From a virus (taxonomy: Duplodnaviria > Caudoviricetes): a stretch of DNA of 25,070 bases. Numbering within the stretch: the first letter of the stretch is position 1; the number at the start of each line of letters is the position of its first letter. The notes below the pieces were generated by a model. It ran no database searches and was not told the origin of the DNA. It was given only the letters and a program-made list of their open reading frames with translations. The position numbers and the translations under genes are program-made. Where the stretch lies: the IMG/VR virus record IMGVR_UViG_3300048562_000077, positions 1 to 25,070 of that record, one strand, 5' to 3'. This document shows positions 2,916 through 8,295 of the stretch, one piece after another.

Positions 2916-4951
2916 TGGCAACTACACAAGATCAGCTCGCAGCTGACAACAAGATTGACGACAGCTTGACCCAGATGGTTCAGCTGAACGAGCAGCAGAC
3001 GCCTGAAGAACAATCTCGTTGGGTCAAGGAGCTTGAATCCGCGCGTAAGGGTCGAAAGGATTTCGACAACTCTGGTCGCAAGACCATTGAGCGCTACGCC
3101 GCCGAGAAGAGCGACAAGAACACTCACGACTACAACCTATTCTTCGCGAACACCGACATCAAGCTGTCAGCGCTCTATTCGCGCACTCCGCAGCCTGACA
3201 TTCGTCGCCGCAACATGGATGCGAAGGACGACGCTGGTCGTGTTGCCTCCACCCTGCTCCAGCGCACCGTCTCCATGGAGCTGGACATTGACGACTTTGA
3301 TGCCCAGTTCAAGCAAATGCTTTTCGACTGGAAGGTTCCTGGCATCGGTATCGGCTGGGTCCGTCTTGAAGAGACCTACGACACCGTAAGCAACCAGACC
3401 CAGCAGGTGGACCCGGTAACGGGTGCCGTAACCGTCCAAGAGACGAGCGAAGAGCAGCTTGTCGAACAGTCCTCCCCGATCGACTACGTAGCGTGGGTCG
3501 ATTTCCTCTGGGCACCGTGCAAGGTCTGGACCGACTGCCGTTGGATTGCCCGCCGCTGCCCAATGTCCAAGGACGCCATTGAGGCGCGCTTTGGCGATAC
3601 CTGCGATGAGGAAGTTCTCAAGAACCTCTCATACGAGGCTTGCAAGACGGAACAGGACAAGAAGGCCGTCAGCAACGAACTTCAGAACACTACCGACGTA
3701 TTTGAGATTTGGGATAAGGAGACCCGCTCGATCTATTGGATCAGCGAGAGCGCTCCTTACCCGCTCGACGTAAGGGAAGACGACAAGGAGTTTCCTGGCT
3801 TCTACCCGACGCCGCTGCCACCACTAGGCCGCTTCACCACTTCCTCGACCATTCCACGCTCTGACTACCTCCTAGCGCAGGGTCTCTACCAGTCGCTGGA
3901 CCAGCTCCAAGAGAAGGCATGGGGCCTCATTGAGTGCATCAAGGCCATCGGCGGCTATGACAGCTCCATTCCAGAACTCAAGAACATTCTGACGGCTGAT
4001 CCGAACACGATGATCGCCATCAAGGACCTCGCCATCATCAACACCGAGAAGGGTGGCGTCGCCAACGCAATGGCGTTCGTTCCGATTGACCAGTATTCCA
4101 CCGTACTTGCCCAGACGCTTTCGCAGATGGGTGTTGTCAAGCAGCAGATCTTCGAGATCGAAGGTATCGCCGACTTCATGCGCGGTGAGACACAGGCGTA
4201 TGACTCCGCTGCCGCCATCAAGCAGAAGGGACAGTTCGCCCCTAACCGTCTTGGCATGGAGCAGAAGACCGTCGCCAAGTACGTCGAGCGCCTTATTCAG
4301 CTCAAGACGCACATCATTTCGAAGTTCTACAAGCCTGAGATTCTCGTTGACCACGCTGGCGCCATCCCTGAAGCGGACAAGCAGTACCTCGCACAGGCTG
4401 TGCAGCTGTTGCAGTCCAACTTCAAGGCGAACTTCAGCCTGTCCGTTTCGGTTGACTCCATTCAGGACACCTACTGGCGCGTAGAGCAGGAAGAGCGTGC
4501 CAACACCGTTCGCACCGTCAGCGGAATGCTCCAGCAGGCTGGTCCAGCTATGCAGCAGCAGCCACAGATTGCGCCGCTCGTCATTGAGCTTATCCGCTAC
4601 GCCGTTGCCGGCACCAAGGGTGCTGAAGCTATCGAGGGCATCCTCGATTCGACTCTCGATCAGGTGCAGCAGGCCCTCAAGGCCAGCGCTGGTCAGCCGA
4701 AGTCGCCAAGCAAGGAAGAGATCAAGGCACAGATTGCCGAGCAGAAGAACCAGACCGACATGGCCATCTCTACACAGAAGAACCAGACGGACATGGCTAT
4801 CGCTCAGTCTGAGGCGTCGAGCCGCGCCATCAACGACCAGCAAGAGCTTGAGGTGGCAAAGATGAACACCCAAGTGAGCGCCGTAGAGGCGTCAGCCAAG
4901 CTGCTCACCGCAATGCACAAGCAGACGCTTGATCTGTCGAGGGGAAGCTAA
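2915..4951 (+). CDS. portal protein (P22-like, long C-terminal helical barrel)
   Basis: 678 aa, directly after terL with a TAATG overlap. Portal-like segments (GIGWVRLE, VFEIWDK, IFEIEGIADFMRG) and a Gln-rich coiled-coil C-terminus. Confidence 0.9.
   Translation: MATTQDQLAADNKIDDSLTQMVQLNEQQTPEEQSRWVKELESARKGRKDFDNSGRKTIERYAAEKSDKNTHDYNLFFANTDIKLSALYSRTPQPDIRRRNMDAKDDAGRVASTLLQRTVSMELDIDDFDAQFKQMLFDWKVPGIGIGWVRLEETYDTVSNQTQQVDPVTGAVTVQETSEEQLVEQSSPIDYVAWVDFLWAPCKVWTDCRWIARRCPMSKDAIEARFGDTCDEEVLKNLSYEACKTEQDKKAVSNELQNTTDVFEIWDKETRSIYWISESAPYPLDVREDDKEFPGFYPTPLPPLGRFTTSSTIPRSDYLLAQGLYQSLDQLQEKAWGLIECIKAIGGYDSSIPELKNILTADPNTMIAIKDLAIINTEKGGVANAMAFVPIDQYSTVLAQTLSQMGVVKQQIFEIEGIADFMRGETQAYDSAAAIKQKGQFAPNRLGMEQKTVAKYVERLIQLKTHIISKFYKPEILVDHAGAIPEADKQYLAQAVQLLQSNFKANFSLSVSVDSIQDTYWRVEQEERANTVRTVSGMLQQAGPAMQQQPQIAPLVIELIRYAVAGTKGAEAIEGILDSTLDQVQQALKASAGQPKSPSKEEIKAQIAEQKNQTDMAISTQKNQTDMAIAQSEASSRAINDQQELEVAKMNTQVSAVEASAKLLTAMHKQTLDLSRGS
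4742..4801 (+). repeat. 33-bp-period duplication encoding QKNQTDMAI x2
   Basis: Copies at 4742-4768 and 4775-4801 differ only at synonymous sites. 11-residue period in the portal coiled coil. Confidence 0.85.
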
Positions 4952-5304
4952 TGCCTTTCTACCTCGCCGAGTGCCCTAAGTGCAACGCACAGCATGAGTA
5001 CATGTGCAAGATCGCCGACCGCGCCAAGACACCGCGCTGTTGCAAGACAAAGACCGTGCGCGTCATTGAAGCCCCGCAGGTCGCCGCCTACTCAACCCTG
5101 ACTGGCTGGAAGGACGTTCAAGTCAACGGCAAGCACTTCGCCTCAGGCGATTTGGCAAAGAAGTACATCAAGGACAAAGACCTCTGCACTCAGGACGAAG
5201 GCAAGGCCCGCTCCGAGCAGGCCATCCGCAACCGCAAGCAGACGTACAAGAAGGATTTGAGGGCCGACCTTACGAAGGCCGTCAATAAACACTGGCAACA
5301 CTAA
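4951..5304 (+). CDS. FmdB-like CxxC zinc-ribbon protein
   Basis: N-terminus MPFYxxECPKC...TPRCC resembles the MPxYxYxCxxC...CPxC pattern. TAATG-coupled to the portal. Confidence 0.7.
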   Translation: MPFYLAECPKCNAQHEYMCKIADRAKTPRCCKTKTVRVIEAPQVAAYSTLTGWKDVQVNGKHFASGDLAKKYIKDKDLCTQDEGKARSEQAIRNRKQTYKKDLRADLTKAVNKHWQH

Positions 5305-5328
5305 CAACAAGAAGAAGGAATACCCGCC

Positions 5329-6426
5329 ATGTCAGACGAAACAATCGCCACTGGCAACGGAGAGACCCAGACCACTATCGTCGAAGAGACGACTGCTACC
5401 TCTACCGCTGCCCCTGAAACCACCACCACAGCCATTGAAACGGCTGCCAAGGACAACAGCCTCAAGGCCGTTCTTGGCCGCAACTTCGACAAGCTGACAG
5501 CGAAAGCTGGGGATACAACGCAGGCTCCAGCTGCCACCAGCACTGCTGCCCCTGCCGGTGAAATGGACCCAATCACTGGTCGCAAGCTCGACCCAATCAA
5601 GGCCCCACAGAGCGTCCCTCTCGCAATGCGCGAGAAGTGGGCGGCTGTACCACGCGAATTCCAAGAGTTTTGGGCTAAGCGTGAGAACGACATCAACACT
5701 CGCCTTACTCAGACCGCCGAGGACCGCAAGTTTGCTGACCGCTTCAAGACTGTGCTTCAGCCTTACTCCGAGGTGTTCAAGCAGCACGGTGTAGACAGCG
5801 TTCAACACGTACACGGCCTACTTCAGGTGAACCACGCCCTACACGCCGGCACCCCTGAGCAGCGCGCTCAGATCCTCTTCAATCTCGTAAATCAGTTCAT
5901 CGGACAGGACCCTAAGGGTCGCCAGGTCTTCGGTGGTCTGCTGACCGGCAAGGTGCAGCATATCCCTGCCGCGCAGGGTGTCCCAACCGCGCCTGAGAAG
6001 TCTGTTGACCAGCTCGTTGAAGAGCGTATGCAGAGCAAGAGCAGCGAAGCGGAACTCGCGAGCGGCGCCACCGCGCTAGATGCGTTCCTAGCTGATCCAG
6101 CCAACGAGTTCGCGGATGACCAGGAGATTCGAGATTTGATGGGAACGGCCCTTGAGGCTGGACTTGTCAAGGGCGATACCTGGGCGGACGTATGGAAGAA
6201 CGCCTACGCATTCGCCTGTTCTAACCACCAAGGTGTGAAGACCGTTCTAGCGGGTCGTCAGACTCAACAGAGCACCACGGCGGCTGTAACGACCACGACG
6301 ACTCCAACAAAGCCCGTCCAGTCGGTAAAGCCATCCGCAGGCGCTGGTACTCGCACAAACGCCAACATGAAGGGCAAGTCGCTTCGTGAGCAGCTTGAGG
6401 CAGCAATGGATCAGCACGGCAGCTGA
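5329..6426 (+). CDS. putative capsid scaffolding protein
   Basis: Lies between portal and capsid. Thr/Ala-rich disordered ends, helical core, C-terminal SLREQLEAAM helix. SD AAGGA. Confidence 0.75.
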   Translation: MSDETIATGNGETQTTIVEETTATSTAAPETTTTAIETAAKDNSLKAVLGRNFDKLTAKAGDTTQAPAATSTAAPAGEMDPITGRKLDPIKAPQSVPLAMREKWAAVPREFQEFWAKRENDINTRLTQTAEDRKFADRFKTVLQPYSEVFKQHGVDSVQHVHGLLQVNHALHAGTPEQRAQILFNLVNQFIGQDPKGRQVFGGLLTGKVQHIPAAQGVPTAPEKSVDQLVEERMQSKSSEAELASGATALDAFLADPANEFADDQEIRDLMGTALEAGLVKGDTWADVWKNAYAFACSNHQGVKTVLAGRQTQQSTTAAVTTTTTPTKPVQSVKPSAGAGTRTNANMKGKSLREQLEAAMDQHGS

Positions 6427-6438
6427 GCTTTTTGCGAC

Positions 6439-6451
6439 CCCGGTGTAAATA
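6439..6451 (+). promoter_or_regulatory. putative late promoter CCCG-GTG-TAAATA for capsid operon
   Basis: Matches the CCG-N3-TAAATA consensus, just downstream of the scaffold stop. Confidence 0.65.
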
Positions 6452-6456
6452 AAAGC

Positions 6457-6734
6457 AGAAGAACAACACACAGACGCGGCTGATCGATTGGTTTCAGTCA
6501 GCCGCTAACTGTGGGCGTAGATGATCGTGGCCAGCGAGTTCCACCCCAACCATTGCAAGGTTGGTCATTGGAGCTGACAAGCACGGCGATCTACACGCTC
6601 GACCTCAAGTCTTAGAGAAGGCCAGCGAGCCGACACGTTCACTCTGAACGCCAGTCGAGCTGACAAGCACGTTCCCTGAAGGCGTTGACGGTTCCTAACA
6701 CGAAACCGCTTAACGATTCATTGGAGAACTACAA
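6457..6734 (+). ncRNA. structured 5' leader of major capsid gene with tandem RNA motif
   Basis: Stems at 6469-6513, 6514-6600, 6620-6671 and 6678-6720. Duplicated blocks GGCCAGCGAG (6529, 6620) and GAGCTGACAAGCACG (6571, 6657). Confidence 0.7.
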
Positions 6735-7718
6735 ATGACATTCCCAGTTGGGCAAATCATTGCCACCACTTACGAGAGCCGCAACGGCAAGCTCTCAGAC
6801 AACTTGACTGCGCACAACGCGCTGTTCAACCACATTAACAAGTCCGGCAACGTCAAGTCGTTCTCGGGCGGCTCAGTCATCACTGAAGAGCTTGTTTGGG
6901 CTGCAAACGGTAACGCTGGTTCGTACAGCGGTGCTGACGCGCTGACCGTGAACGAAACCGGCGGCATCGACCGCGCTGAGTTCGACATGAAGCAGTACGC
7001 GGCTCCTATCGTCTTCACGGGTCGTGACGAGCTGATGAACGCTGGCAAGGAAAAGGTCATTGACCTTCTCGAAGCCAAGATCGAGCAGGCTGAAACCTCG
7101 CTCTTCAACAAGCTCAACGTTGACGCATACGGCGACGGTACCGGCAACTCAAGCAAGGTCATCACTGGTCTCGCTGCTGCTGTTTCTACCTCACCATCCT
7201 CGGGTACCTACGGTTCTATCGACCGTTCGAACTCGTCATACGCTTTCTGGCGCAACAAGAACTACATCTCTGGTGTGGACTTCACGTCTGGTCAGGCAGC
7301 AACTTCCTCCACCATCATCAACCAGCTCGGTCAGGTTGTTCAGGGCGTTACCTTCGGTAGCAACCGTCCAACCGTAATCATCGCTGGTCTGACTGTCTAC
7401 AACCTGCTTCTCGGTGCGACCACCGCGAACCAGCGCTTCATGGACGGTGGCAAGGCGGACGCTGGCTTCCAGTCGCTTGACTTCCAGGGCATTCCAGTTG
7501 TGTACGACGCTGCTAACGCATCGTTCCTCGCAACTCAGGCATACGCTCTGAACACCAAGTTCCTGCGTCTCCGCGTTCACAAGGACCGTAACTTCGTGAT
7601 GCTGAAGGGCAAGGACCCATCGAACCAGGACCTCACCATCGAGACTCTCGTATGGGCAGGCAACCTGACTTCAAGCGGTCAGCGCTACCAGGCTGTCTAC
7701 AGCTCACTCGCGTCATAA
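6735..7718 (+). CDS. major capsid protein
   Basis: 327 aa after the scaffold, with SD GGAGA and strongly biased codons. IIATTxExRxGKLxDN start and FQSLDFQGIPVVYD P-domain-like segment are consistent with an HK97-fold capsid. Confidence 0.9.
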   Translation: MTFPVGQIIATTYESRNGKLSDNLTAHNALFNHINKSGNVKSFSGGSVITEELVWAANGNAGSYSGADALTVNETGGIDRAEFDMKQYAAPIVFTGRDELMNAGKEKVIDLLEAKIEQAETSLFNKLNVDAYGDGTGNSSKVITGLAAAVSTSPSSGTYGSIDRSNSSYAFWRNKNYISGVDFTSGQAATSSTIINQLGQVVQGVTFGSNRPTVIIAGLTVYNLLLGATTANQRFMDGGKADAGFQSLDFQGIPVVYDAANASFLATQAYALNTKFLRLRVHKDRNFVMLKGKDPSNQDLTIETLVWAGNLTSSGQRYQAVYSSLAS

Positions 7719-8246: not shown

Positions 8247-8278
8247 AGGGCTGGCTTCGCAAGAGGTCAGCCCTTTTT
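8247..8278 (+). terminator. intrinsic terminator after capsid/decoration genes
   Basis: AGGGCTGGCTTC-GCAA-GAGGTCAGCCCT-TTTT: 12-bp stem with G-U pairs, GNRA loop and U tract. Confidence 0.9.
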
Positions 8279-8282
8279 GCTG

Positions 8283-8295
8283 CCCGCTGTAAATA
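8283..8295 (+). promoter_or_regulatory. putative late promoter CCCG-CTG-TAAATA
   Basis: Begins 5 nt after the terminator U tract and is identical to 424-436. Confidence 0.7.

Follow-up and report, generated by a model that had tools for sequence, protein, structure and literature searches.

What is the long and structured RNA in front of the major capsid gene of this phage for? The window, by which we mean the whole stretch of 25,070 nucleotides analysed here, is the record of a 25-kb provirus that is approximately 69% complete. Its genes follow in the order terminase, portal, small FmdB-like gene, probable scaffold and major capsid, as they do at the loci of phages Mx8, Mx9 and BUCT555. The capsid gene (6735..7718, + strand) is of the Mx8/Mx9 type (phrog_9953 major head protein, E 3.9e-73), its product is 39-42% identical to those of the Myxococcus phages Mx8 and Mx9 and the Stenotrophomonas phage BUCT555, and a gap of 308 nt separates it from the probable scaffold gene. 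A TAAATA box in this gap (6446..6451, + strand), likely a promoter of the T4 late type, precedes the capsid leader. TAAATA was found ten times on the + strand of the window and once on the - strand, with 1.45 occurrences expected on both strands together, and the boxes on the + strand (431, 1009, 2803, 6446, 8290, 9049, 11910, 16630, 19077 and 21017) mostly lie directly 5' of genes. As in T4-type late promoters, the TAAATA core stands on the coding strand before late genes, whereas T4's TA prefix is absent at the boxes of the window. A gp55-like sigma factor was not detected among the 29-31 window proteins scanned, which stem from a record about 69% complete. Given the spacing of -13 to -6 stated for T4 late promoters in an excerpt of PMC1524935, the capsid message likely starts near 6457, which makes the flagged stretch of 278 nt (6457 to 6734) its likely 5' leader. 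Most late gene groups of this small provirus are preceded by a TAAATA box, and the box is present in the sister clade as well. The weak Rfam match of positions 555-627 to suhB/mmgR (26 bits, E 0.13) is probably a mere terminator hairpin following the TAAATA box at 431.

One independent close relative of the window phage was found, the locus L171, whose capsid protein is 90% identical. In L171 and in the sister clade, TAAATA lies 280-327 nt 5' of the capsid gene (approximately 310 nt in the sister clade). The four-fold sites of the window and L171 differ at 58 of 165 positions in the capsid gene and at 77 of 153 in the scaffold gene (35-50%), while not one of the 96 bases at 6603-6698, around the second copy of the duplicated unit described below, differs between the two phages. 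The 3' block of copy 1 (6571-6585) is likewise without a difference over 15 bases, and the tip of copy 1 has been replaced in L171 (18 of 32 bases differ) but still folds. Recombination could explain part of this identity, but not the changes that keep the structure. As far as sequence goes, the comparison shows that the leader is under purifying selection and that the duplication is real. A recent local duplication without function would match the lineage-specific occurrence of the full unit, yet it is scarcely credible and largely refuted already by a conservation far above that of silent sites, by compensatory changes and by the family-wide enrichment of the loop reported below.

The preliminary description of this stretch had placed a tandemly duplicated RNA motif in the leader, and the repeat itself was confirmed: 6529-6538 and 6620-6629 are identical 10-mers, 6566-6585 and 6652-6671 agree at 18 of 20 positions, and the tandem pattern has two matches in the window and none in 100 shuffles. 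As had been claimed, the hairpins enclosed by the shared blocks are of different sequence and each of them folds (pair probabilities 0.94-1.0), and the flanking stems were recovered at 6469-6513 and 6678-6719. Most of the pairing proposed within the copies did not hold. Of three registers, the one with the CAGC/GCTG helix had the lowest stability in every one of the three copies compared, and none of its pairs covaries; the CGTG/CACG extension cannot form in copy 2, where three of its four pairs are lost; and the supposedly invariant GAG block reads GGG in copy 1 of L171. The GTAGAT/ATCTAC extension fared better in part, being favoured in the window's own predicted fold (0.97) but losing two of six pairs in L171. 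The proposed internal pairing was replaced by another register, in which the closing helix is formed by the bases adjoining the shared blocks on the outside (six pairs in copy 1, five of six in copy 2). Over the three copies, 35 of 36 cells are paired in this register and five pairs are changed on both sides, compared to none in the register proposed before; this covariation is supportive and carries no significance test, since the register was derived from those few sequences. Together with the conservation in L171, the covarying closing helix supports the view that the capsid leader is conserved, structured and cis-acting.

In this register, both copies have one predicted architecture. It comprises, from the base upwards, the closing helix, a G.G, a G-C pair and a 3x1 loop in which CCA faces a single A, and above this loop two G-C pairs, a second loop (1x5), a stem and a tip that varies. 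Copy 1 (6523..6591, + strand) is closed by 6523-6528/6586-6591, where L171 has one U-G to U-A change, and contains the predicted 3x1 loop CCA 6531-6533/A6583 between the G.G and G-C on one side and the two G-C pairs on the other, followed by the 1x5 loop, the stem 6537-6543/6569-6575 and the variable tip. The unconstrained fold contains both the closing helix and the upper stem of copy 1. In copy 2 (6614..6677, + strand) the closing helix 6617-6619/6672-6674, which is extendable, has the register of copy 1 and a different sequence. The predicted outer loop of this copy is CCA 6622-6624/A6669, and an inner, inverted loop (CCA 6651-6653/A6635) is flanked by six and four pairs with helix probabilities of 0.94-0.97. 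In the window copies, the free fold is favoured over the outer CCA/A register by 1.7-2.9 kcal/mol; in copy 1, this register costs 1.7 kcal/mol and therefore rests on comparison. The core pairs of the outer loop never vary in the three copies. The outer loops fail the strict loop scan described below because their helices are too short, so that only the inner loop of copy 2 passes. Each copy is thus predicted to present one CCA/A loop at its base, and copy 2 a second one inside.

As a whole, the capsid leader folds better than all of 200 shuffles (z -4.1). Its 5' hairpin (6469..6513, + strand; pair probabilities 0.91-0.99) keeps 14 of 14 pairs in L171 with an A-U to G-C double change and a U-G to U-A change, and likely protects the 5' end of the message. 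At the other end (6671..6729, + strand), the predicted fold comprises the 3' stem 6678-6719 and an anti-Shine-Dalgarno helix (6671-6676/6723-6729) in which three of the four bases of the Shine-Dalgarno GGAG (6723-6726, + strand) are paired with a probability of 0.98-0.99. All six anti-Shine-Dalgarno pairs are kept in L171, where the 3' stem loses 3 of 14 pairs. The anti-Shine-Dalgarno helix and the closing helix of copy 2 share 6671-6674 and are mutually exclusive, and both are kept in L171, which suggests a possible route of control at the ribosome site. Forcing both copies to form lowered the cost of opening this site from 5.1 to 4.4 kcal/mol in the window and raised it from 6.9 to 7.0 kcal/mol in L171, both values being specific to the nearest-neighbour model. 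An activation switch at copy 2 is therefore unsupported: forcing the units hardly alters the opening, so that the folding predicts no on/off switch and indicates neither activation nor repression of the capsid. Long leaders and short ones are similar in access to the Shine-Dalgarno sequence (medians 0.25 and 0.30, respectively, p 0.054).

Several smaller observations concern the same region. An identical 9-mer occurs in the 3' arm of copy 1 (6565-6573) and at the Shine-Dalgarno sequence (6718-6726), which makes the ribosome site a possible alternative pairing partner for the 5' arm of copy 1. L171 (1698-1889) allows an alternative global fold with pairing over 24 bases between the 5' half of copy 1 and the 3' stem, and the window has this fold in a much weaker form. 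The short reading frame that begins at 6522, with 18 codons (15 in L171), was rejected as a candidate on inspection, being without a good ribosome site and not repeated in copy 2. Contigs from eight runs contained no sequence variants in the leader and revealed no RNA ends, and the contigs from RNA libraries, which may be DNA, cover the leader and the neighbouring genes alike; the leader was not covered in runs with a small share.

Does the leader belong to a known RNA family? An Rfam covariance-model search gave no match for the leader at E<=5, in agreement with the preliminary description, which had not recognised it. No match reached the gathering score in 20 related loci, and at E<=1 one weak match, away from any leader, was obtained in 14 related loci. 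Likenesses to guanidine-III, SAM-II, hammerhead, kink-turn and SRP loop RNAs were dropped on the negative Rfam result. The whole 60-nt unit was found only in the window phage and L171. A covariance model of the three copies, in which copy 2 scores 78.8 bits, retrieved nothing significant beyond them in the window and 175 related loci. Exact-pattern scans of IMG/VR (81 loci, plus 120 stretches from 27 of 64 parts) yielded no independent match to the whole unit; the one locus that fits, L064, carries the window's own sequence, and the remaining matches are apparent chance as judged by eye from inner-fold energy and context. By blastn against 50,697 phage records, the leader gave eight short chance matches. 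A search with a clade-specific capsid pattern identified six loci, one of them a new member of the sister clade, while the scaffold search returned identical copies only.

These searches bear on the proposal that the copies are tandem small-molecule aptamers of a riboswitch, with the copy 2 closing helix and the anti-Shine-Dalgarno helix as the alternative states of the switch. Such an RNA would fit the long unpaired stretches that are invariant in the two copies, and also the two mutually exclusive helices beside the ribosome site, both retained in L171. We nevertheless regard it as improbable, given that the unit is confined to two phages in the IMG/VR and related loci scanned, that Rfam holds no match, that the family shares only a loop of four bases, and that forcing the units hardly alters the predicted opening of the ribosome site. 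The hairpins are long and irregular and lie between genes whose products are needed in different amounts, which would also suit sites for RNase III-like processing, at which scaffold-capsid read-through transcripts would be cut and the capsid part stabilised; T7 is a precedent for processing sites between phage genes. The short helices of the copies and the apparent promoter box of the capsid gene's own make this explanation equally improbable.

The element shared beyond the two phages is the CCA/A loop. We scanned the leaders of the Mx8-like phages for all types of 3x1 loops with at least three pairs on each side; of the 77 long leaders in the non-redundant set, 60 contained CCA/A, compared to 16.7 in six shuffles and 16 on the reverse strand. 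CCA/A ranked first among the 3x1 loop types (z 11.6; next type 3.7). When the leaders were grouped by blastn into 41 classes and one leader per class was taken, with the window's class left out, CCA/A was present in 29 of the 40, in 6 on the reverse strand, with a median over loop types of 6. It was less frequent in coding controls (4/40, 6/40, 11/40 and 10/34) and in phages with short leaders (5/36), and in plain minimum-energy folds it appeared in 17 of 40 leader classes and in none of 40 capsid coding sequences. Eleven of the 41 leader classes failed the strict test, some of which have CAA/A. The loop is present in the cultured phages Mx8 and Mx9 and absent in BUCT555. Across the sequences compared, CCA/A loops are thus shown to be strongly enriched in capsid leaders throughout the phage family. 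In a FastTree of 113 capsids, where the window sits on a long branch, the trait is clustered yet spread over both main branches (20 changes), and gains are indistinguishable from losses. The 5' closing pair of the loop is C-G or G-C in approximately 32 of 35 weighted cases, and the 3' pair is mixed. As only this small loop is shared, covariance models at the level of the family miss RNA elements of this kind.

Two apparent signals elsewhere were not sustained. A CCA/A hotspot at the 3' end of the capsid gene is a codon artefact (CCA/G ranks higher there), and the gene 3' of the capsid showed no clear enrichment (CCA/A in 25 of 111 compared to a 95th percentile of 23). The leaders of L138, L206, L211 and L222 appear to use CAA/A in place of CCA/A; L138, L211 and L222 form one well-supported capsid branch and would be useful for finding a co-varying residue of the binder. 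A large and well-conserved leader class, located approximately 190 nt 5' of the capsid gene (L121, L124, L127, L133, L134, L139, L150, L165, L207, L209, L230, L237, L238, L246 and L257), carries an extended -10-like promoter, and each of its leaders contains two CCA/A loops; no Rfam match was obtained in the members tested, and the members are numerous enough for a covariance model of their own.

The nearest clade, referred to here as the sister clade, has capsid proteins 44-48% identical to that of the window and leaders with two CCA/A loops in two long hairpins. Its CCA is kept in 27 of 28 cases and the single A in 28 of 28, while 7 of 12 flanking pairs are changed on both sides; one closing pair is A.C in 7 of 14 leaders, and the bases next to the second loop are those found in the copies of the window. 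These leaders hold a reading frame of 57-75 codons, mostly with a strong ribosome site. Divergence at the silent sites of the 75-codon frame is about half that of the capsid gene, while the encoded protein has diverged more than the capsid, which suggests that constraint acts on the nucleotide sequence; since the loops fall within this frame, coding constraint may add to their conservation. The frame overlaps the conserved two-hairpin RNA in L092 (2187-2503), L093-L097, L099, L173-L177, L179 and L180, the RNA being closed by a long-range helix of nine pairs, and the two likely form a dual coding and structural element.

A CCA/A loop also lies at a second head gene. The hairpin over the scaffold start codon (5324..5360, + strand) has in its unconstrained fold two opposed loops, CCA 5327-5329/A5357 and CCA 5348-5350/A5336, and the scaffold AUG begins with the last base of the first CCA. 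This hairpin accounts for 77% of the ensemble (z -2.5), and the nested double CCA/A hairpin is unique to 5324-5360 on either strand of the window and absent from 20 shuffles. Compared to L171, one of its 37 bases differs, in the apical loop, and nine of the following 60 bases do. Three double-loop hairpins were found in 520 kb of related loci, two of them being those of the window phage and L171, and all three lie at or just 5' of a scaffold start. Within the clade, 5 of 14 non-redundant members have the loop at the scaffold start, compared to 0-2 of 14 inside the gene. Outside the clade it was detected at the scaffold start in only 2 of 74, with automatic start calls that may be off, and the family-wide count (12 of 88) lies at the 95th percentile of loop types and is unremarkable. 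Scaffold feedback can therefore not be the general reason for the loop, as scaffold starts are not enriched family-wide or outside the clade. Within the clade, scaffold Asp3, which supplies the single A of the loop, is nearly invariant.

The gene at 5329..6426 (+ strand) is probably that of the scaffolding protein, as judged from its position, which is that of Mx8/Mx9, its weak match to phrog_25516 and its fold; the model is mostly helical and of low confidence, with a C-terminal helix (pLDDT 62.6). Upstream of it lies a small basic gene (4951..5304, + strand; FmdB-like phrog_1076, E 1.6e-5) with an N-terminal Zn ribbon. Its homologues are located 5' of the scaffold gene across the family, most of them without CxxC: in the loop-bearing phages CxxC was present in 8 and absent in 29 of those in which the small gene was called, a few calls being clearly in the wrong frame, and the gene was not called in 18. 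The Zn-ribbon protein had been suggested as a binding partner, and the ribbon was dropped as a required binder because it is absent from most loop-bearing phages, which keep the loop without it. Fold searches with the model of the small protein gave nothing informative (best Z 3.2). By eye, its terminal helix resembles the terminal helix of the scaffold, which recurs near the scaffold N-terminus.

The recurrence of the CCA/A loop in many capsid leaders and over the scaffold start codon suggests that it is likely a docking site for a protein. We lean, with modest confidence, towards the leader being part of a multivalent protein-binding translational operator that would coordinate scaffold and capsid output, and this reading is favoured by a fixed loop within changing helices on two head messages, by the protein binding described for C-loops and by the P22 precedent. 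The leader would form the 5' part of a dedicated late capsid message, and the recognition unit would be the predicted 3x1 internal loop with CCA opposite A. One head-module protein, most likely free scaffold, would bind these loops: scaffold is the most plausible candidate with rather less than even confidence, the small basic upstream protein is possible but unlikely, the capsid protein is a more doubtful choice and a host protein a more doubtful one again. A protein bound to the scaffold message would keep the AUG within the hairpin and repress translation; bound to the capsid message, it would tip the balance between the copy 2 closing helix and the anti-Shine-Dalgarno helix, or stabilise the message, so that capsid output would be tied to the state of head assembly in either direction. 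Of the guesses in the preliminary description, an operator for scaffold and coat feedback gains from the loop over the scaffold start, while the aptamer branch is weak. A more far-reaching reading, which we put forward only tentatively and hold to be rather unlikely, is an undescribed head-assembly rheostat of the Mx8-like podoviruses, in which free scaffold would read CCA/A, silence its own start and set capsid translation by way of several such loops arrayed on the capsid message, jointly with leaders of unrelated sequence having kept or re-made the loop across the family. If this were true, coat and scaffold would be made in step with procapsid assembly. A four-base loop common to dozens of unrelated capsid leaders offers a precise and mutable target, and its presence in two Myxococcus phages that are in culture, Mx8 and Mx9, opens the binder and the direction of control to direct tests.

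The main rival to the protein operator is a ligand-free stabiliser or translation enhancer of a very abundant message, in which the CCA/A loops would be architectural and serve helix twist, tertiary packing or the avoidance of nucleases. The dedicated promoter box, the strong 5' hairpin, the lack of a switch in the predicted folds and the association of the loop with long leaders (55 of 70) and not with short ones (6 of 43) are all compatible with an enhancer, as is the statement, in the part of PMC2441787 consulted, that C-loops raise helical twist, typically without contacts to other RNA. Recognition, in contrast, fits a loop whose sequence is fixed while the flanking pairs vary freely, and a double loop over the scaffold AUG would hinder translation rather than enhance it; we consider the enhancer unlikely. 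The loop over the scaffold AUG also argues against a cis antiterminator acting on elongating RNA polymerase, as does the structure adjoining the Shine-Dalgarno sequence. In HK022, put RNA causes read-through of downstream terminators in cis, and two structured units directly 3' of a promoter box, with a terminator-like site following 3' of the capsid gene (8247-8274), would resemble this arrangement. Read-through is not needed here, as a new TAAATA lies at 8290 past this site, and such a role appears very improbable.

How does the proposed operator compare with known systems? To our knowledge, the matching of coat to scaffold output in tailed phages is known mainly from P22, and Wyckoff and Casjens reportedly worked in 1985 on the translational autoregulation of its scaffolding protein. 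P22 scaffold is implicated in translational autoregulation in the part of bioRxiv 2022.12.13.520362 seen. Like in P22, control would be post-transcriptional and act on a head-assembly gene, and a structure over the scaffold start would fit; unlike in P22, it is mainly the capsid leader that contains the element, which is present there several times and downstream of a promoter box of its own. The P22 passage seen describes no RNA structure, and the CCA/A operator proposed here is predicted. T4 gene 32 and gene 43 also have structured leaders beside the ribosome site (excerpt of PMC3014915). Those are read by a phage protein, whereas the binder is a proposal here, and according to the same excerpt each is one operator, a pseudoknot or a hairpin, that belongs to a replication gene, in contrast to a small loop repeated in otherwise unrelated capsid leaders.

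C-loops are described as protein-binding sites in the section of PMC2952876 seen. Like this motif, CCA/A is an asymmetric 3x1 loop within hairpins whose long strand starts with C, with two cytosines and an unpaired adenine. An asymmetric loop within a hairpin, with the longer strand starting from C, was found in the predicted folds of 17 of 40 leader classes, of copy 2 and of the scaffold start. A C-loop contains two crosswise non-Watson-Crick pairs that form two triads, and CCA/A is known here from sequence alone. The viroid example, as given in part of bioRxiv 2021.12.02.470923, has A-U at both closing positions and a single base that is free to vary. Here, in contrast, the single A does not vary, and the loop is closed on its 5' side by G-C or C-G in nearly all cases. 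A CCA bulge opposite A also occurs in another head-related phage RNA, the prohead RNA of phi29, whose UCCA/A bulge is essential (excerpt of PMC3479190). The pRNA is a free-standing motor component according to this excerpt, in contrast to a messenger leader in a phage that encodes a terminase. The leader might be released or used as a trans-acting head-assembly RNA of this kind, a possibility to which we attach very little weight: the window phage has an ordinary large terminase (phrog_2), no terminator-like site is found at the end of the leader, Rfam gave no match, and many relatives are without a long leader. Among 168 capsid loci with the upstream gene called, a redundant set, the gap was at least 120 nt in 102 and below 60 nt in 58.

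The leader is a real, selected RNA and probably a variant among phage translational control elements. No description of it was found in the open-access literature, nor was a defined RNA operator for the capsid gene of a dsDNA phage. A term search of the main text of Weinberg 2017 (PMC5737381) did not return the word capsid. Fremin et al. 2023 list five candidate structured RNAs 5' of the major capsid gene PHA00201 in the portion of PMC10690425 seen; short strings from the leaders had no match in its searchable supplements, and an overlap of some leader classes with these candidates is possible.

Further genes were noticed around the capsid gene of the sister clade. In L092, a reversed cargo gene of 309 aa (1241-2170, - strand), TIR-like by eye, lies between the scaffold gene and the TAAATA box, and long scaffold-capsid gaps are also present in L093, L095, L174, L175 and L176, so that this spot looks like an insertion hotspot. 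The gene directly 3' of the L092 capsid gene (3522-4115, + strand) resembles type VI secretion Hcp by eye and is followed by two small genes.
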